Assembly (NCBI GenBank): GCA_017484225.1
Contig: JAFUTN010000008.1
Coordinates: forward strand, 7,440 to 71,439
Source of the DNA: Alphaproteobacteria bacterium
GTDB lineage: Bacteria; Pseudomonadota; Alphaproteobacteria; RF32; CAG-239
Length of the DNA stretch: 64,000 bases
Reading direction: 5' to 3'
Of the stretch, positions 1,914 to 62,150 are shown one piece after another. The notes under the pieces were generated by a model. That model was not told the origin of the DNA. It was given only the letters and a program-made list of their open reading frames with translations, and did not search any database. Both the position numbers and the translations under genes were made by a program. The stretch's first letter is position 1; the number at the start of each line of letters is the position of its first letter.

Positions 1914-3443
1914 TTATTTTTTCAAAAGCGAAGTTCCGGTCATTTCTTTCGGTTTTTCAATGCCGAGCAAATCCAACAGAGTAGGGGAAATGTCCGCCAA
2001 ACGTCCGTCTTTTAATCCCTTTACATTTTCCGGAGCATTATAAATAACGGCGCGAACTTTGCCGACAGTATGAGCGGTATACGGTTCACCTGTTTTTTCA
2101 TCAATCATTTTTTCCACATTTCCGTGGTCGGCTGTTACCAGTAAAACACCGTCAACTTCTTTAATGGCTTCCATTACGCGCCCTAAAGATTTATCAACGG
2201 CGGCAACGGCTTTCAGTGCGGCACTCATAATACCCGTATGTCCCACCATATCACCGTTGGCAAAATTGCAGATTATGGTATCAAATTTGCGGCTTTTGAT
2301 AGCATCAACCAAGGCATCTGTTACCTCGTAAACACTCATTTCCGGTTTCAAATCATAAGTAGCAACTTTCGGACTGTTAATCAAAATGCGCTCTTCTCCT
2401 TTGAACAGGCGTTCTTCTCCGCCGTTAAAGAAGAATGTAACGTGAGCGTATTTTTCCGTTTCGGCAATGCGAAGCTGCGTTAATCCGTGTTCGGCCACGA
2501 TTTCACCGTAAATATTGGTCAGTTCTTCCGGCGGAAATACGGTGTTCATAAAACGACGGTGGTCGGCAGAATATTCAGTCATACCGTTGCAAGACGAGAA
2601 TTTTATTACCTTGCGACGCTCAAATCCGCTAAATTCCGAATCGCCTAAAGCATACAAAATTTCACGAGCGCGATCGGCTCTGAAGTTTGCCATCATAACG
2701 GCATCACCGTCTGAACAACCCTGATAGGTGCCGATAACACAAGGAACCACAAACTCATCATTGACACCGGCGGCATAAGATGCGTCAATGGCCTCATCAA
2801 CGGTTGCATATCTTTTACCATCGGCACTGACAATATTATTATACGCCAATTCAACTCTGTCCCAGCGTTTGTCACGGTCCATGGCATAAAAACGACCGGA
2901 TAAAGTGGCAACGGAAACATTAGGCATATCTTTAAGCGAATCCGCAAATTCGCGAAGAAATCCCTTCGCAGATGTCGGAGGTGTGTCACGGCCGTCCAAA
3001 AAAGCATGAACATAGGTTTTAATTCCGCTGCGATTAAAGATATCGCACAATGCCGCAATATGCTTTTGGTGCGAGTGAACGCCGCCCGGTGACATCAAAC
3101 CCATTAAATGGCATGATTTTCCGCTCTTTTTCAAGTTATCAATTAAGGAAACAATAACCGGATTTTTTTCCAATGTATGGTTCTTTACGGACTCGTCAAT
3201 TTTTGGTAAGTCTTGCATAACAACGCGTCCGGCACCCAAATTCATGTGTCCTACTTCGGAGTTGCCCATTTGTCCTTCCGGCAAACCGACATCCAGTCCG
3301 GAAGTTTCTACAAAACAATGCGGACAGGTGTTTAAAAGCTCGTGCCAATGAGGAGTTTCTCCCTGTTCTATGGCGTTATCCGCCGTGATGTTTTTTCTAT
3401 AGCCCCAGCCGTCCAAAATAAGCAACATAACCGGTTTTTTCAT
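1914..3443 (-). CDS. gpmI: 2,3-bisphosphoglycerate-independent phosphoglycerate mutase
   Basis: Full-length iPGM motifs: LLILDGWG, GNSEVGHMNLGAGR, GGVHSH, ADHGN. Confidence 0.95.
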   Translation of the reverse strand: MKKPVMLLILDGWGYRKNITADNAIEQGETPHWHELLNTCPHCFVETSGLDVGLPEGQMGNSEVGHMNLGAGRVVMQDLPKIDESVKNHTLEKNPVIVSLIDNLKKSGKSCHLMGLMSPGGVHSHQKHIAALCDIFNRSGIKTYVHAFLDGRDTPPTSAKGFLREFADSLKDMPNVSVATLSGRFYAMDRDKRWDRVELAYNNIVSADGKRYATVDEAIDASYAAGVNDEFVVPCVIGTYQGCSDGDAVMMANFRADRAREILYALGDSEFSGFERRKVIKFSSCNGMTEYSADHRRFMNTVFPPEELTNIYGEIVAEHGLTQLRIAETEKYAHVTFFFNGGEERLFKGEERILINSPKVATYDLKPEMSVYEVTDALVDAIKSRKFDTIICNFANGDMVGHTGIMSAALKAVAAVDKSLGRVMEAIKEVDGVLLVTADHGNVEKMIDEKTGEPYTAHTVGKVRAVIYNAPENVKGLKDGRLADISPTLLDLLGIEKPKEMTGTSLLKK

Positions 3444-6140: not shown

Positions 6141-6169
6141 TTTACAATCTCGGTTAGTTTTGTTACTAT
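6141..6169 (+). promoter_or_regulatory. Sigma70-like promoter of leader L1
   Basis: TTTACA (6141..6146), N17, TACTAT (6164..6169). The same architecture and position recur in the paralogous leaders L2 and L3. Confidence 0.6.
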
Positions 6170-6175
6170 TCCGAC

Positions 6176-6397
6176 AGAGTGAGCTAAAAACTCACTTCAG
6201 GGCGTGACAACCCTTTGCAAAAAATCAGTCGTTATAAAACGACTTTTAATTGTATGCCGATTTCGCATGTTGTTGTGTGCGGATGTCGGTGTTATAAGGC
6301 TTAAAGCACGAAATCGCCGAGCCGTTTTGATTTTTTGCACGGTTTGTCAACATCCGCCCACCATTTTAGGTGGCTTTTTTGTTAACTTTTTTAATTA
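6176..6397 (+). promoter_or_regulatory. Structured 5' leader RNA L1 (candidate attenuator / riboswitch-like element) of LRR paralog 1
   Basis: Aligns end to end with the leader of the 15220..15969 paralog, with compensatory stem changes, a 45-nt near-identical core (6279..6323) and a 3' terminator. The start is estimated from the promoter. Confidence 0.55.
6356..6380 (+). terminator. Intrinsic terminator inside leader L1
   Basis: GCCCACC-ATTTTA-GGTGGC followed by TTTTTT, located about 20-35 nt upstream of the candidate start codons. Confidence 0.55.
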
Positions 6398-7396
6398 ATG
6401 AAAAGGATGTTAAACATGAAATTTTTGCATAATAGTATTGTTGTCAGCTGCAGCTTAATGTTTTGTTTTTCGGTCAGGACAGAGGCAAGTATCATAAGTT
6501 GTATAAACGGAACAGATGCTGACGGAAAAGCCTGCGAATCATGCGGGGAAAATTGTAATTGGACTTTTGATACCGAGAGCGGAAAACTCAATATTTCCGG
6601 AAGCGGAAAAATGAATGATTACAACGGTTATTGGGATAAAGAGAACAAAGTTTATGTGTCAGATACTCCTTGGAGCGAATACAAAAGAAAAATAAAATCT
6701 GTAGACGTCCAAGGCGTAAGTAATATAGGAAATATGGCTTTTTTCGGCTCAAACGGCTCTCTTGAATCGTGTAATATCGCCGACACGGTGACAGATATCG
6801 GTAAAGGTGCTTTTTACTCTGCAAATCTGAAAAATATTGTATTACCGGAGTCTTTAGAAAATTTACGGGAATCTGCATTTGAATATTCCGGTTTGATTTC
6901 TGCAATAGTTCCGGATTCCGTGAAAAATATGGATGGAAGAGTTTTTGCTTATAATAAAGGTCTTGTGTCGGTGGTTATTCCCGACACATTAACCGAGATT
7001 AAACCTTGGGGAACACTCGGATTAGACTATAACAATATACAGATTATCTGTAAAGGAACCGAAAGTTCCTGCGCCCGCTTGGCAAGTAAAGTTGAAGGAC
7101 TCGGTTATAATATGGATAATTTCGTTACGGCAGATGCTCAATATTGCACCGGCAGCTACATATATGACGAAAACGGGTGTCACAAACGCAATGAAAATCA
7201 ATGCAATGATACGGAAAATTATTATTACAACGGAAAGACTTGCGTGTATCGTCCGTCAAGTGGCGAAATTAAATGTGAAAACTCCGGTTTTTATGCCGGT
7301 TACGGGTATTGTTACCGTGTTCGCTACACAATGGAAGAAGCAAACTCGGCAACGAGTGATGATACGGAGAATATGATTGAATGGATTTTTGAATAA
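6398..7396 (+). CDS. Secreted BspA-type leucine-rich-repeat / Cys-rich protein, IEWIFE-tail family, paralog 1
   Basis: Signal peptide. Motif CNWTFDTESGKLNISGSGKM. LRR_5-like repeats (IGNMAF, IGKGAF, VLPESL, IPDT). Cys-rich spacer. Shared tail RYTMEEANSATSDDTENMIEWIFE. The start may be the ATG at 6416, which has a better SD. Confidence 0.8.
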   Translation: MKRMLNMKFLHNSIVVSCSLMFCFSVRTEASIISCINGTDADGKACESCGENCNWTFDTESGKLNISGSGKMNDYNGYWDKENKVYVSDTPWSEYKRKIKSVDVQGVSNIGNMAFFGSNGSLESCNIADTVTDIGKGAFYSANLKNIVLPESLENLRESAFEYSGLISAIVPDSVKNMDGRVFAYNKGLVSVVIPDTLTEIKPWGTLGLDYNNIQIICKGTESSCARLASKVEGLGYNMDNFVTADAQYCTGSYIYDENGCHKRNENQCNDTENYYYNGKTCVYRPSSGEIKCENSGFYAGYGYCYRVRYTMEEANSATSDDTENMIEWIFE

Positions 7397-15219: not shown

Positions 15220-15927
15220 TTACTCAAAAATCCACTCAATCATGTTTTCGTTATCGTTACTGGTTGCCGCATCCGCTTCCGGTAAAGTGTAACGTGTGCG
15301 CATGCAAAACCCATAATATGAAGTGTATTCTGCATAACAACTACTTATGCAACCAACTCCCGCTTGCACGAATTTTTCTCCGCAATTTCCGCAGTCTCCG
15401 GTTTTTCGGCAGTTTGATAATTTTGAAGCAACAAAAGTATCTCTATTACTGGCTGCAATCGTATCCGGACCATAGATAATACCATCCGGAATACCGACAT
15501 ATTCAAGCTTTGCTGTTTCCCCGAAAGCGATACCGCCTATTTCCTGCACATTAGGTAAATCAATACTTTTAAGGGAACGTGCGGCAAAAAATGCAGCATC
15601 ACCGACACGGGTTATATTTTCCGTTCCCGTTATATCTTGCAATCTGGAGGCATCTTTAAAAGTTCTGGCTCCAATACTGGTAACATTCCCTTCAATAACG
15701 GCATGGACAATGTTTTTGCTTACCCATGGTGCTGTAGATGATACACCGCCATCTAAATAATCGTAATCAGCCATTTCGCCACTACCGGAGATGGTTAAAG
15801 TCTTACTTGTCTCATCATAAACGCATTTTACGTTTTCTCCATAATTTCCGTTTGCATCTTGTTTTCCGCAATTCCATGTTTCGGCTTTTACTTTATCTAA
15901 AGCAGACAGTAAAACCAGAAAAACCAA
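15220..15927 (-). CDS. BspA-type LRR / Cys-rich protein, IEWIFE-tail family, paralog 2. The signal peptide is interrupted by an in-frame TAG, so this may be a pseudogene.
   Basis: LTISGSGEMADYDY, repeats IGARTF/VGDAAF/IGGIAF, tail RYTLPEADAATSNDNENMIEWIFE. The tracked ORF starts at a TTG. In the same frame upstream lies ATGAAAAGGATG... (15969), homologous to the paralog 1 start, then TAG at 15931..15933. Confidence 0.7.
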   Translation of the reverse strand: MVFLVLLSALDKVKAETWNCGKQDANGNYGENVKCVYDETSKTLTISGSGEMADYDYLDGGVSSTAPWVSKNIVHAVIEGNVTSIGARTFKDASRLQDITGTENITRVGDAAFFAARSLKSIDLPNVQEIGGIAFGETAKLEYVGIPDGIIYGPDTIAASNRDTFVASKLSNCRKTGDCGNCGEKFVQAGVGCISSCYAEYTSYYGFCMRTRYTLPEADAATSNDNENMIEWIFE

Positions 15928-15969
15928 GCTCTAGAATCTTAAATGTATCATTTCAAACATCCTTTTCAT

Positions 15970-16183
15970 TAAAATTAAACCAATAAAAAATCCCGTTCAA
16001 AAACGGGCGGATGTTAGTAAACCACAATTAAGCAAATGGCTCGGCGATTTCGTGCTAAAGCCTTATAACACCGACATCCGCTCAACAAAATGAACGAATT
16101 ATCGGTTAAAACCTATAATCGCATAAACTGCGATGCTTAATTGAAGGGTTACTACGCCCTGAAGTGTGTTTTTTCACACTCTA
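15970..16183 (-). promoter_or_regulatory. Structured 5' leader RNA L2 of LRR paralog 2
   Basis: Homologous to L1 over its whole length, including the 44-nt core at 16081..16038. Stems are conserved through compensatory or wholesale stem replacement. Confidence 0.55.
15984..16007 (-). terminator. Intrinsic terminator inside leader L2
   Basis: Minus strand: CCCGTT-TTTG-AACGGG, then A and TTTTTT. Confidence 0.55.
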
Positions 16184-16189
16184 CGGACG

Positions 16190-16218
16190 ATTCTAACAAA
16201 TGCAAATAGGATTGTAAA
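16190..16218 (-). promoter_or_regulatory. Sigma70-like promoter of leader L2
   Basis: Minus strand: TTTACA (16218..16213), N17, TAGAAT (16195..16190). Confidence 0.6.
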
Positions 16219-36575: not shown

Positions 36576-37430
36576 TTATTCAAAAATCCACTCAATCGTG
36601 TTTTCGTTATCGTTGCTTGTGGCTTCATCTGCTTCCGGTATGGTATAGCGAATACGGTTGCACCAACCGCCGGAATTTCTGCAGGTATCACAACATTTGC
36701 GCTTGCTTACATCCGGTTCGCGGACACAATCGGCTCCGTTCCAAAAGTGACTTACGGAAGAATTGCATTGAATATCTGTCGCTTTTTCAACTTTAACATC
36801 CGGCATACACACACGTTCATACATATTTGGGTCACATGTTCCGCCGGCAGCGGTGCTGACGAATCTTTTTATTTTATCTCGGCAAATCGTAACATCTCCC
36901 AAACAACGGAAAATCTCAATTTTATTGCTTCTGTCGTTAAAAGCATCAATGTGCCAATCTTGGATGTTACTTTGGTCAGAAATAATAATTTCTTTTGTTG
37001 CTCCGTGTGTCCGAAAAGCATCTTGCCCTACGTAAGTAACCGTTTCGGGAATATAGACGGATACAAAAGAATCGGTATCAAAGGCTCTGTCTTGTATTGT
37101 GGTGACAGAACTTCCTATATTGATGTCTCTGATTTTTTTGTAGTCTCGGAAAAGTGCATAACTTACGTTGTTAACTCCCTGTATATCCACGGAAGTGATT
37201 TTGTTTTTATAGTCTTTCCATGGTTGGTTTTCCGTCCAAATATTATTATTAACGGTAACATACTTATCTATATTTCCGCTTCCGCTGATACTGAGTTTTC
37301 CTTGTGAATCCACACTCCATAAACACGTTCCGGCCGAATTGCATGTTCCGCTGTCTGCAATATCGGCCCGAGCGATATCGGTAGAATATGAAAACAACAA
37401 TACTATCCCGAACACTAACATTTTTCTCAT
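36576..37430 (-). CDS. Secreted BspA-type LRR / Cys-rich protein, IEWIFE-tail family, paralog 3
   Basis: Trimmed to the ATG at 37430 (MRKMLVFGIVLLF, SD GGAG), because the longer ORF runs through the leader terminator. CLWSVDSQGKLSISGSGN, Cys-rich spacer, tail RYTIPEADEATSNDNENTIEWIFE. Confidence 0.8.
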   Translation of the reverse strand: MRKMLVFGIVLLFSYSTDIARADIADSGTCNSAGTCLWSVDSQGKLSISGSGNIDKYVTVNNNIWTENQPWKDYKNKITSVDIQGVNNVSYALFRDYKKIRDINIGSSVTTIQDRAFDTDSFVSVYIPETVTYVGQDAFRTHGATKEIIISDQSNIQDWHIDAFNDRSNKIEIFRCLGDVTICRDKIKRFVSTAAGGTCDPNMYERVCMPDVKVEKATDIQCNSSVSHFWNGADCVREPDVSKRKCCDTCRNSGGWCNRIRYTIPEADEATSNDNENTIEWIFE

Positions 37431-37688
37431 AATTTTTCTCCACTTTAGTAAATAAAAAAGCCACCGGTTAGGGTGGTCGGGGAGTTGACAAATCATGTTC
37501 AGCATAATGACTATTACGGCCTTTAGCATAACAATGCTTGAACATACGCCGTAATCTCCCCGTCCGAATACGGGGATTTAAAACCAAAAAAGCACCCTGA
37601 AGGGATACCGTTTTGGTATCGCTGAACAAAGAGCCTGTCACAGCCCCGAACCTCTCGGTTCTTCGGATGAAATAAAATTTATCCATCC
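37431..37688 (-). promoter_or_regulatory. Structured 5' leader RNA L3 of LRR paralog 3
   Basis: Shares with L1/L2/L4 the 5' module (hairpin running into TTCGGGGCTGTGACAGGCTCTTTG) and the C-rich box plus terminator at the 3' end. Confidence 0.5.
37454..37476 (-). terminator. Short intrinsic terminator inside leader L3
   Basis: Minus strand: CCACC-CTAACC-GGTGG, then C and TTTTTT. Confidence 0.45.
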
Positions 37689-50126: not shown

Positions 50127-50174
50127 TCAGATTATCAGCAACACTCCGGCAGTGAGTATCAAATAAAGCAAAAT

Positions 50175-50222
50175 AAAAAAGCACCGAGAAATCGGTGCAA
50201 TACAAAAATGGAGCGGATGAGG
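50175..50222 (-). repeat. Direct repeat copy 1: terminator hairpin plus the last 14 nt of tRNA-Gly
   Basis: 48 nt, identical to 50353..50400 except for one position (A/G at 50202 vs 50380). Contains GCACCG-N6-CGGTGC and TGGAGCGGATGAGG. Confidence 0.9.
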
Positions 50223-50347
50223 GCGCGAACGAGAGAGCAGATACAAATTATCTGCGAACAGTGAGCGGTGCCGAGTTTCCGCAAGCATAAACGCGGGAGC
50301 GTGAAAAGCGCGCGGAGAAAACTCAAACCGGTATTCACCTCATCCAC
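50209..50347 (-). ncRNA. Candidate 139-nt tRNA-like RNA: tRNA-Gly-type acceptor stem and UCCA end, with a GC-rich unrelated core
   Basis: The 5' GTGGATGAGG pairs with the 3' CCTCATCCGC, followed by TCCA. There are internal hairpins (GCAGAT/ATCTGC; GAGTTT/AAACTC) and an intrinsic terminator. No D, anticodon or T arm could be drawn. Confidence 0.35.
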
Positions 50348-50352
50348 AAATA

Positions 50353-50400
50353 AAAAAAGCACCGAGAAATCGGTGCAATGCAAAAATGGAGCGGATGAGG
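50353..50400 (-). repeat. Direct repeat copy 2: terminator of tRNA-Gly plus the tRNA 3' end
   Basis: See copy 1. The repeat period is 178 nt. Confidence 0.9.
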
Positions 50401-50460
50401 GGAATTGAACCCCCGTTATAAGCTTGGGAAGCTTCTATTCTACCATTGAATTACATCCGC
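50387..50460 (-). tRNA. tRNA-Gly (anticodon CCC), CCA encoded
   Basis: Minus strand: GCGGATG TA ATTC-AATGGTAGA-ATAG; anticodon loop TTCCCAA; T arm GGGGG-TTCAATT-CCCCT; CATCCGC TCCA. Confidence 0.9.
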
Positions 50461-60999: not shown

Positions 61000-61280
61000 T
61001 GGTGAAAGAAATTTTTACCAAGAACCCGAAAAAGGGGTTCGGAGCTTTGAACGGCTTTTATAGTGAGCTGTATCGTTAATGATACTGTTAAGTCAGTAAG
61101 ATTTGCTGGCATATTCCCTGATTATAGGAAAATCTATGGTCGGGGTGCTTGTGGTGTATGTCTAGGCATAGTAGCTAAAGACCACAGGAGTCATTTCTCA
61201 CTATATGATTGTTCAACTCTCCGACCGTCCTTTTGAGGCGGATTTTTTATTTTTAAAATTTTGCTTTATTGGAGAAAAAG
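61000..61280 (+). promoter_or_regulatory. Structured 5' leader RNA L4 of LRR paralog 4
   Basis: Hairpin GAACCC-GAAAAA-GGGGTTC running into TTCGGAGCTTTGAACGGC (the same 5' module as L3 and L1). C-box CTCCGACC plus terminator at the 3' end. Confidence 0.5.
61225..61248 (+). terminator. Short intrinsic terminator inside leader L4
   Basis: CCGTCC-TTTTGA-GGCGG (one bulge), then A and TTTTTT. Confidence 0.45.
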
Positions 61281-62150
61281 ATGAAAAAAATTGTGCTGAT
61301 GTTGGGGATAGTGTTGTGCTGCAGGGTTGAGTATGTAAAAGCCGCATGTACTGCAAATTCTGATGAATTTGGAAACAAAAAGTGTCTCACATGGAATCCG
61401 GGGGTGGAAAATAATTGCGGCAGAGGTTGCACATATACTTATGAAAACGGAACGGTAAATGTTGTTGCCTCCGGAAGTTCTCCGAAAATTTCCGAAGGAA
61501 TGTTTTCTCCCCTGTATTATGATGGCGGAATGCCGGTAGAAATTGAACATATTGTTGTTGATGGTAATTTTGAAACAATAGGAAAACATGCTTTTGCCGT
61601 GGCTGGGGCAACAATTTCGGGGAAAAACGGCGAGTTGGTGCTGAATAAATCAGGCTGGAATGCATTTGGAAATGAAACAAACGTTTTGCAAGGAGATATT
61701 GTCATATCAGATTCTGCCGGAACTATGGGACATGGTTATTTGGTTAATACGGTTTTGGACGGCACACTCATAATTCCGGAAAATATAACTTTTTCTTCCG
61801 GACCGTTAAGAGATTTGACTGTAACGAAAAACGGAAAAATATATTGTGCCGTAAAAAATTGTGAGGAGAGATTGCTGGAATCTTGTAATTCTCTGCCACA
61901 GGAAAATGCTAATGGTTATGATTTACGTTCCAGATGTAATAATTCAGTTCAAAAAATCATTGATGCCGGAAAGATAGAAGCATTTCCGGATGGATGTATA
62001 CGAATGTCCGGTGTCGGTTGTCAACAATGTGCCAACAAAAATTATGCATTGGAATACGGCACTTGTTACCGCAAACGCTACACTTTACCGGAAGCGGATG
62101 CGGCAACCAGCAACGATAATGAAAACATGATTGAATGGATTTTTGAGTAA
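61281..62150 (+). CDS. Secreted LRR-like / Cys-rich protein, IEWIFE-tail family, paralog 4
   Basis: Trimmed to the ATG at 61281 (MKKIVLMLGIVL, SD GGAGAAAAAG). CTYTYENGTVNVVASGS, Cys-rich spacer, tail RYTLPEADAATSNDNENMIEWIFE. Confidence 0.8.
   Translation: MKKIVLMLGIVLCCRVEYVKAACTANSDEFGNKKCLTWNPGVENNCGRGCTYTYENGTVNVVASGSSPKISEGMFSPLYYDGGMPVEIEHIVVDGNFETIGKHAFAVAGATISGKNGELVLNKSGWNAFGNETNVLQGDIVISDSAGTMGHGYLVNTVLDGTLIIPENITFSSGPLRDLTVTKNGKIYCAVKNCEERLLESCNSLPQENANGYDLRSRCNNSVQKIIDAGKIEAFPDGCIRMSGVGCQQCANKNYALEYGTCYRKRYTLPEADAATSNDNENMIEWIFE

Follow-up and report, generated by a model that had tools for sequence, protein, structure and literature searches.

In the annotated genome of phage P1, the antisense RNA c4 stands in the order promoter P1c4, a1 (TTGACAG), b1, c4 itself (77 nucleotides, nt), a2, and b2 over the ribosome-binding site of icd; b' lies in the loop of the second c4 hairpin and a' (CTGTCAA) in the linker, and the record annotates the upstream sites a1 and b1 as "putative" targets of c4. 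RNAs of the C4 class acquire their 5' end by RNase P cleavage of a precursor. The arrangement of c4 with upstream a1/b1 has been listed as a "c4-a1b1" motif (PMC2864571). In the Gifsy-1 prophage of Salmonella, the short terminated RNA IsrK (Rfam RF01394) acts in trans on the longer isoform that read-through of its own terminator produces (PMC4825925), and homologs of sRNA-Xcc1 occur in several copies per genome in Xylella (PMC12189769). The DNA studied here is a 64,000-nt stretch of contig JAFUTN010000008.1 (assembly GCA_017484225.1, Alphaproteobacteria bacterium), called the window below. It encodes four paralogous secreted proteins, three of which match the BspA-type leucine-rich repeat (LRR) family LRR_5, and a leader of about 230-290 nt lies upstream of each. 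These leaders, L1 to L4, belong to an apparently undescribed family of structured RNAs of roughly 200-250 nt, absent from Rfam 15, that is related to c4 of phages P1 and P7 (the C4 / sRNA-Xcc1 / IsrK group) in architecture and probably also by descent. A dual-function leader of the c4/IsrK kind is the best reading of them; it is tentative, and we would place it a little short of even. On that reading, the c4-type antisense architecture would here have been put to a new use, in a variant form that pairs with itself and leads surface genes of the chromosome.

The four leaders are one RNA family, since the covariance model R1, built from an alignment (A3) of 26 type B sequences that are relatives of L3 and L4 only, finds L1 and L2 over the full length of the model. 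All four matches in the window are full length: L3 scores 112 bits, L4 108 bits, L1 (6278-6388) 37.3 bits (E 3e-7) and L2 29.5 bits (E 3e-5). R1 finds no further copy in the window, its other matches being lone terminators, and it recovers two type C members full length at 35.3 and 22.3 bits. Each copy looks like a transcription unit of its own, with promoter, 5' module, 3' module, intrinsic terminator, ribosome-binding site and gene. The 5' module consists of hairpins P5 and P6, the latter with a1 in its loop and b1 after it; the c4-like 3' module is an outer stem, P1, enclosing P2/P3 and P4. The parts of L1 are as follows.

6141-6397, + strand: leader L1 as a whole
6141-6169, + strand: promoter TTTACA-N17-TACTAT, also found by a consensus scan, with a TG extension before the -10 hexamer
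6177-6197, + strand: hairpin P5, GAGTGAG-loop-CTCACTT; type B has GAACC-loop-GGTTC at the same place
6199-6214, + strand: hairpin P6, AGGG-CGTGACAA-CCCT, with a1 (GTGACAA, 6204-6210) in its loop
6216-6227, + strand: strand b1, TGCAAAAAATCA, directly 3' of P6; forms 12 perfect pairs with b' (6328-6339)
6227-6244, + strand: variable hairpin P7, AGTCGTT-ATAA-AACGACT; relatives, like L2, have a hairpin of unrelated sequence at this position
6257-6266, + strand: anti-P1 strand, CCGATTTCGC, which can pair with the P1 5' arm and beyond to give an alternative fold, and does so in minimum-energy folds
6279-6285, + strand: 5' arm of P1, GCGGATG, pairing with 6351-6357; the outer stem in the R1 alignment
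6287-6319, + strand: stem P2, CGGTG/CGCCG; its 23-nt loop is almost the same in L1 and L2
6321-6343, + strand: hairpin P4, GCCGT/ACGGT, with b' (TGATTTTTTGCA, 6328-6339) in its loop
6344-6351, + strand: linker bearing a', TTGTCAAC, which pairs with the P6 loop (a1, 6204-6210)
6351-6357, + strand: 3' arm of P1, CATCCGC, which together with the preceding AA is complementary to the ribosome-binding region GGATGTT
6358-6380, + strand: intrinsic terminator, CCACC-loop-GGTGG followed by CTTTTTT
6403-6418, + strand: ribosome-binding site AAGGA and the ATG (6416) of paralog 1

The L1 transcript probably starts near 6176, to judge by its promoter, and promoter-like hexamers stand at a similar position in many relatives (read by eye, no count). 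L2 is collinear with L1, its stems being either compensatory or unrelated in sequence. Its long-range partners differ strongly from those of L1 in sequence and pair alike (GTAGTAA/TTACTAAC and CAATTAAGCA/TGCTTAATTG). Both leaders fold far better than shuffled sequences, with z of -5.0 for L1 and -6.4 for L2, and none of 200 shuffles equals either. The parts of L2, and those of the type B leaders L3 and L4, are given here.

16218-15970, - strand: leader L2, laid out as L1; promoter to terminator occupies 15985-16218
16149-16155, - strand: a1 of L2
16134-16143, - strand: b1 of L2
16075-16081 with 16007-16013, - strand: P1 of L2
16025-16034, - strand: b' of L2
16013-16020, - strand: a' of L2
15985-16007, - strand: terminator of L2
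37454-37723, - strand: leader L3, type B, before paralog 3
37648-37661, - strand: P5 of L3
37631-37646, - strand: P6 of L3
37621-37629, - strand: b1 of L3
37496-37503, - strand: b' of L3
37484-37491, - strand: a' of L3
60965-61248, + strand: leader L4, type B, before paralog 4
61022-61040, + strand: P5 of L4
61042-61057, + strand: P6 of L4
61059-61067, + strand: b1 of L4
61197-61205, + strand: b' of L4
61210-61217, + strand: a' of L4

A preliminary description of this DNA, made from its letters alone, had aligned L1 with L2 and proposed a conserved structured leader, running from promoter to terminator directly upstream of the gene; the present analysis bears this out, and every structural element it listed is real. 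The promoters (TTTACA-N17-TACTAT in L1, TTTACA-N17-TAGAAT at 16218-16190 in L2) are where it had placed them, the first hairpin carries the compensatory change it reported (GAGTGAG/CTCACTT against GAGTGTG/CACACTT), and a second hairpin occupies the same position with unrelated sequence (AGTCGTT-ATAA-AACGACT at 6227-6244 against ATCGCA-GTTTA-TGCGAT). The near-identical 45-nt core that starts at 6279 occurs exactly twice in the window (0 expected by chance), and both terminators are a hairpin with a T run, built from different stems. Of the two pairings it offered, GCGGATG(T) at 6279-6286 with (A)CATCCGC at 6350-6357 is the family helix P1, and GGGCG (6200-6204) with CGCCC (6355-6359) occurs in the minimum-energy fold as predicted for L1. 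What that structural model overlooked is P6 and the pairings b1:b' and a1:a', the long-range helices that dominate the fold. A leader-peptide attenuator was also considered and rejected, there being no conserved short open reading frame (ORF) in the two leaders: L1 has one of 16 codons at 6255-6305 (MPISHVVVCGCRCYKA), which is probably not meaningful, and L2 has no ATG at the corresponding place.

Scans of genome and metagenome contigs guided by alignment of the paralogs gave nothing that tblastn confirmed, and DNA patterns derived from the RNA were used instead of protein-guided scans to collect members. A 3'-module pattern found about 25 distinct relatives in metagenomes, and a 5'-module pattern matched 59 loci in genomes. 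There were 37 complete 3'-module matches, all of them in 33 loci of metagenome-assembled genomes (MAGs) labeled Alphaproteobacteria or "proteobacterium" from rumen and human gut; where the 5' module was itself a pattern match, the 3' module lay 70-130 nt downstream on the same strand, and one further 3'-module match ends at a contig end. The 5'-module loci of other phyla have no 3'-module match and are therefore taken as chance matches. The type B 5'-module pattern was run once over viral contigs, with 0 hits, and a search for type A members (the type of L1 and L2) through close protein homologs returned types B and C only. The collection now has about 70 members from rumen and gut Alphaproteobacteria MAGs, with multiple copies per genome (at least five in some), and leaders of the same plan stand upstream of LRR homologs in other MAG contigs. 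The idea that the shared leaders reflect chance or a mere remnant of duplication was rejected in view of these roughly 70 covarying relatives.

Adding these relatives also gave strong covariation, in keeping with the earlier view that the structure is preserved by compensatory change. Alignment A3 supports P1 as the outer stem, the long P2/P3 hairpin, whose internal loop is conserved, the hairpin P4, the linker and the terminator. In type B all eight pairs of P2 covary (97.6% of cells paired), as do four of the five pairs of P3, and the covariation score of A3 is 0.418, against 0.20 when shuffled (0 of 500 reach the observed value) and 0.06-0.14 when the partners are slid. On a plain MAFFT alignment of all subtypes, RNAalifold returns P1 and the terminator only; to recover the inner helices, a structure had to be drawn by hand on an alignment of type B. 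P5 and a 4-bp hairpin P6 with an 8-nt loop precede the c4-like module in all members. This loop (a1) complements the linker that runs from P4 to the 3' arm of P1 (a'), as b1, the strand that follows P6, complements the loop of P4 (b'). A column test on 43 sequences finds the P6 stem 100% paired (2 of 4 pairs covarying), the a1:a' pseudoknot 93.4% paired (4 of 6) and P4 100% paired (3 of 5); together the three score 0.325, against 0.154 shuffled (0 of 500) and 0.03-0.06 slid. Helix a exists in eight linker variants, with the P6 loop matching each, and locus L197 has a further variant, ATCCTA/TAGGAT.

The register of helix b relative to P6 shifts by 1 nt between members; a fixed-register column test was dropped, and helix b was tested free of alignment by comparing cognate with non-cognate partners. 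Across 57 distinct elements the median energy of b1:b' is -10.7 kcal/mol for cognate pairs versus -2.0 kcal/mol for non-cognate ones, and for 95% of elements the cognate one is among the top 5% of all partners. The same 57 elements have 54 distinct b1 strands, which makes helix b nearly unique to each copy. The antisense segment pairs with its cognate 5' module at a predicted -20.3 kcal/mol, and with non-cognate modules at -11.6 kcal/mol. As judged by covariation, a1:a' and b1:b' clamp the 5' and 3' modules together. The topology may be described as one in which the loop of each hairpin pairs with the tail after the other, that is, the geometry of two H-type pseudoknots with their partner strands swapped, and with such a geometry P4, P6, a and b could all coexist. 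(Helix b is mismatched in loci L135 and L057, and is broken in L141:5312-5600 (- strand), at -1.4 kcal/mol, where b1 is TATACAATA as in L168 and the b' loop TGTCTTATA as in L140; L141 is either a recombinant or an assembly chimera.)

A second fold is conserved as well. Minimum-energy predictions give an extended duplex between the 5' and 3' parts, in which the 5' arm of P6 pairs with the 3' arm of P1 and the anti-P1 strand with the 5' arm of P1. The key pair in type B, R3:Y76, is GC in 23 sequences, AU in 14, GU in three and something else in three, and its helix is 94.8% paired; complementarity is retained with other sequences in type A (GGGCG/CGCCC) and type C (GGAGG/CTTCC). Type B has a strong anti-P1 hairpin, with a median of -11.6 kcal/mol and z of -2.4. 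Two mutually exclusive pairings thus seem to be under selection, and two mutually exclusive folds that both covary suggest a conformational switch.

At gathering thresholds Rfam finds only tRNAs in the window, and none of the roughly 25 metagenome relatives has an Rfam match to the RNA at or below threshold; the family motif sequences brought up nothing relevant in the literature searched. In E-value mode, sub-threshold and over the full length of each model, L1 matches sRNA-Xcc1 (RF02221, gathering cut-off 53 bits) at 27.6 bits (E 0.007) and C4 (RF01695, cut-off 45 bits) at 24.8 bits (E 0.013). L2 matches sRNA-Xcc1 at 23.1 bits, again over the full model, and has no C4 match; L3 and L4 match neither in this mode. 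The preliminary description could match the leader to no riboswitch class; the element nevertheless has relatives, by these sub-threshold matches and by an anatomy that agrees with phage P1 c4 and its a1/b1 sites.

The likeness to C4 lies in the order of parts: a promoter, a1, a short spacer, b1, some 70-100 nt, then two hairpins inside an outer stem; the last hairpin carries b' in its loop, the linker before the 3' arm of the outer stem carries a', and both are complementary to upstream a1/b1 in the same transcript. The outer stem, the two hairpins and a UUGYCAAC-type linker recur in the family, P1 c4 having CTGTCAAC in that place; the a sequence is nearly the same (TTGACAG/CTGTCAA in P1, TTGACA(A)/TTGTCAA in the family), and a CC(A/G)CC run follows the outer stem. 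The differences are equally plain. The score of L1 stays below the threshold for C4 membership, the outer stem of the family is shorter (6-8 bp, against about 17), an enlarged P2/P3 with its conserved internal loop takes the place of the first hairpin, helix b is 9-12 bp versus 7-8, and an intrinsic terminator stands directly 3' of the RNA. The family pairs with its own 5' end, and no a2/b2 target was found in the 150 nt downstream. It precedes chromosomal surface genes with housekeeping neighbors, not the icd or ant-type antirepressor genes of phage immunity. That a1/b1:a'/b' is the sole such pairing present in the family, and is strongly selected, suggests that intramolecular pairing is an ancestral, functional part of c4-type RNAs.

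As with IsrK, the layout implies that one promoter would give both a short terminated RNA and a read-through mRNA with the same RNA at its 5' end; the short form of IsrK targets the long one, in whose alternative structures it competes with its own sequence (PMC4825925). The partner of IsrK lies downstream, in orf45, whereas that of the family lies upstream, at a1/b1, and neither L1 nor L2 has an Rfam IsrK match in E-value mode. sRNA-Xcc1 is the best sub-threshold match of both L1 and L2, with the same helices over the full model and a multicopy habit, but the scores fall far under 53 bits and type B members give no match. It is known from Xanthomonadaceae, in integrons and genomic islands, and has not been described as heading surface genes.

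Under the favored reading, most transcripts would end at the terminator and yield a stable short RNA, while read-through transcripts would carry the same RNA as the surface-protein gene's 5' untranslated region. The a/b clamp and the fold switch would then set translation or stability of the read-through mRNA; alternatively, the fold might set the amount of read-through. By analogy with IsrK and its long isoform, the short RNA may act in trans on read-through from its own locus only, competing for a1/b1. The arms of P1 mimic the ribosome-binding site and its complement (AACATCC against GGATGTT in L1 and L2, CTCC against GGAG in type B), which is suggestive only. A bolder extension, in which we place little confidence, treats the b1:b' helix and the a1:a' variant as a private barcode that restricts trans feedback of the short RNA to nascent and read-through transcripts of its own locus, so that each surface-antigen gene would have an independent, heritable ON/OFF state reached without DNA rearrangement: an RNA-based, locus-addressed phase variation. 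If it were true, the genes concerned would be LRR adhesins, pilins, glycosyltransferases and lipopolysaccharide-modifying enzymes.

Several points weigh against the c4/IsrK-like reading or parts of it. R1 scores P1 c4 at only 3.3 bits (E 1.1), which is not significant, so the case for C4 homology comes down to weak type A matches and anatomy, and the resemblance could be convergence. A trivial purine/pyrimidine effect could account for the way the P1 arms resemble the ribosome-binding site. L1 and L2 themselves have a weak anti-P1 hairpin (z -0.7), and the covariation of R3:Y76 may mirror only two sub-lineages instead of many independent events. Divergence of b1 within genomes is only moderately above that of P2 (0.56 versus 0.42 differences per site), a modest difference that does not demonstrate selection for orthogonal barcodes. 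Transcription start, termination efficiency, processing and any action in trans are all deduced from the letters of the DNA.

The explanation that fares best after this one is a ligand- or protein-sensing attenuator, riboswitch-like, in which the double-pseudoknot fold would be a sensor that decides terminator read-through or access to the ribosome-binding site. The preliminary description had seen the signature of a riboswitch-like attenuator here. A large conserved tertiary architecture, conserved internal-loop sequences (e.g. GUAUGUNCA / AAAG in type B), two mutually exclusive folds that both covary, a terminator directly before the gene and a coherent cell-surface set of downstream genes would all suit such a sensor. 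The behavior of the terminator does not. In 68 elements its stem begins a median of 1 nt (range 0-4) after the 3' arm of P1, with a median energy of -10.2 kcal/mol and at least five T within the next 8 nt in 94% of cases. It overlaps either fold by 0-2 nt at most (generally with P1; at most 2-4 nt in L1), and it is intact in the minimum-energy fold of L2. No terminator stem mutually exclusive with a conserved antiterminator helix was seen in the 68 elements or in the L1 and L2 folds. The terminator, which abuts the fold in about 94% of members, appears to be essentially constitutive with respect to RNA structure and competes with neither predicted fold; classical riboswitch attenuation is therefore unsupported. 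The unpaired core nucleotides, including the loop and junction "pocket" sequences, vary among types A, B and C, unlike those of small-molecule aptamers, and no Rfam riboswitch matches. We regard a sensor as unlikely, and the signature as first proposed is not supported.

A stand-alone trans-acting antisense small RNA, c4- or sRNA-Xcc1-like, would have its targets elsewhere in the genome, with a1/b1 as an aid to folding or processing or as a cis decoy, and with the downstream gene incidental or co-transcribed. The exposed a' and b' of a c4 anatomy, a promoter and terminator of its own, and the multicopy sRNA-Xcc1 homologs of another bacterium (PMC12189769) speak for this. The target searches give it no help: an a2/b2-type target within 150 nt downstream scores -10.6 kcal/mol for cognate and -10.3 kcal/mol for non-cognate combinations, b1-like eight-base words in the 1.5 kb downstream number 0.16 per kb cognate versus 0.15 non-cognate, and a scan of the window for trans targets, itself of low information value, showed nothing above background. 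The RNA lies almost invariably on the same strand directly upstream of an ORF, and its near-unique b' would demand a private target for every copy. This makes a free-standing regulator distinctly unlikely. Less probable again is a processive antitermination RNA of the put or EAR kind, by which the leader would modify RNA polymerase so that it passes the following and further terminators. EAR and RfaH regulons include polysaccharide and surface genes, as do the targets here, and a structured RNA immediately 5' of a strong terminator that gene expression must pass is what such a mechanism calls for. Many of the targets, however, look like single short genes (an opposite-strand gene follows paralog 1), the RNA bears no resemblance to the put or EAR models in Rfam, and polymerase binding needs no hypervariable b helices.

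Inverted repeats do flank some 100-150 bp upstream of surface genes of phase-variable type, but the proposal that the a/b segments are sites of a site-specific invertase turning a promoter for these genes was rejected and is very improbable: G-U pairs are common and A-C rare (about 25 G-U cells versus five non-pairs in P2), which points to selection on one RNA strand, the a/b spacers (GCTC versus TGAT) are conserved and not complementary, hypervariable repeats offer a recombinase no site, and there is a single orientation: wherever both modules were identified, the complete 3' module (37 in all) lies 3' of the 5' module and shares its strand.

Returning to the dual-function leader, the genes that follow it give the family its likely context. 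Among members for which a downstream ORF was found, about nine of ten have its start codon no more than about 45 nt from the modeled end of the element, on the same strand, in the layout promoter-RNA-terminator-ORF and with no room for a second promoter. The downstream genes encode LRR_5 secreted proteins, GT2 glycosyltransferases, a sulfatase-family membrane protein and a type IV pilin of the bundlin/PilS type, and some further products look like lipoproteins from their N-terminal sequence alone. This is a cell-surface set, and the RNA apparently stands at the front of a regulon for the cell surface that comprises adhesin-like LRR proteins, pilin, glycosyltransferases and the sulfatase-family protein. 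A large, strongly covarying RNA of about 230 nt, with two swapped loop-to-tail pseudoknots and a conserved alternative fold, is thereby described from uncultured gut and rumen Alphaproteobacteria; these organisms are without genetics, and the RNA points to possible control of their surface. RNA engineering could draw on its naturally orthogonal helix variants as parts.

Some individual loci merit mention. The rumen MAG RGIG4773 has at least five copies of the RNA (L169, L188, L170, L159 and L167) before paralogous genes for bundlin/PilS-like type IV pilins, with a different b helix in each. An LRR_5 homolog that has no leader RNA (L006, L009 and L010, with the gene at 3001, 4001 and 446, respectively) has smpB and a divergent HTH_3 gene beside it; upstream of it in L009 there is a resolvase gene at about 2.5 kb and an apparent 3' end of a tRNA or tmRNA at about 400 nt. 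This leaderless copy appears to sit in a mobile island and to be regulated differently. A tRNA gene lies no more than a few hundred bases from the metagenome loci L057, L018, L039, L049 and L092, and a 6S RNA gene adjoins L016; such proximity to RNA genes may be coincidence or may reflect preferred insertion of the cassette there.

The four paralogs themselves are placed as follows, together with a C-terminal motif of about 25 residues that they have in common.

6416-7396, + strand: paralog 1, an LRR_5 secreted protein; its ATG at 6416 is also the gene start in public assemblies
15220-15951, - strand: paralog 2
36576-37430, - strand: paralog 3
61281-62150, + strand: paralog 4
7301-7396, 15220-15306, 36576-36669 and 62055-62150: C-terminal motif in paralogs 1 to 4, respectively

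Metagenome assemblies of ENA and Logan also contain the protein of paralog 1, as does the NCBI MAG assembly GCA_017484315.1, and the source label on named protein relatives is "MAG: Alphaproteobacteria bacterium." Paralog 2, read from its ATG at 15951, meets an in-frame TAG at codon 7 (15933-15931), and the long ORF resumes at a TTG at 15927; it is either a pseudogene or a gene with an unusual start, while its leader L2 is intact. The C-terminal motif (e.g. ...RYTLPEADAATSNDNENMIEWIFE, ...KRIYTIDEANAVAGKVNSVKIRYR and ...RIRYTPAEAAQVLRDDNTNSVTITFKK) has no Pfam match and is common to otherwise diverse secreted proteins, among them those of L164, L097, L013 and others; it may be a sorting or secretion signal. 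Elsewhere in the window, a 55-nt direct repeat, 95% identical, occurs at 50169-50223 and 50347-50401 (spacing 178 nt), one copy overlapping the 3' end of tRNA-Gly(CCC) at 50387-50460. ARAGORN finds a single intact tRNA at this pair; the other copy looks like a tRNA 3' fragment with a terminator, and the pair may be the scar of an integration event.

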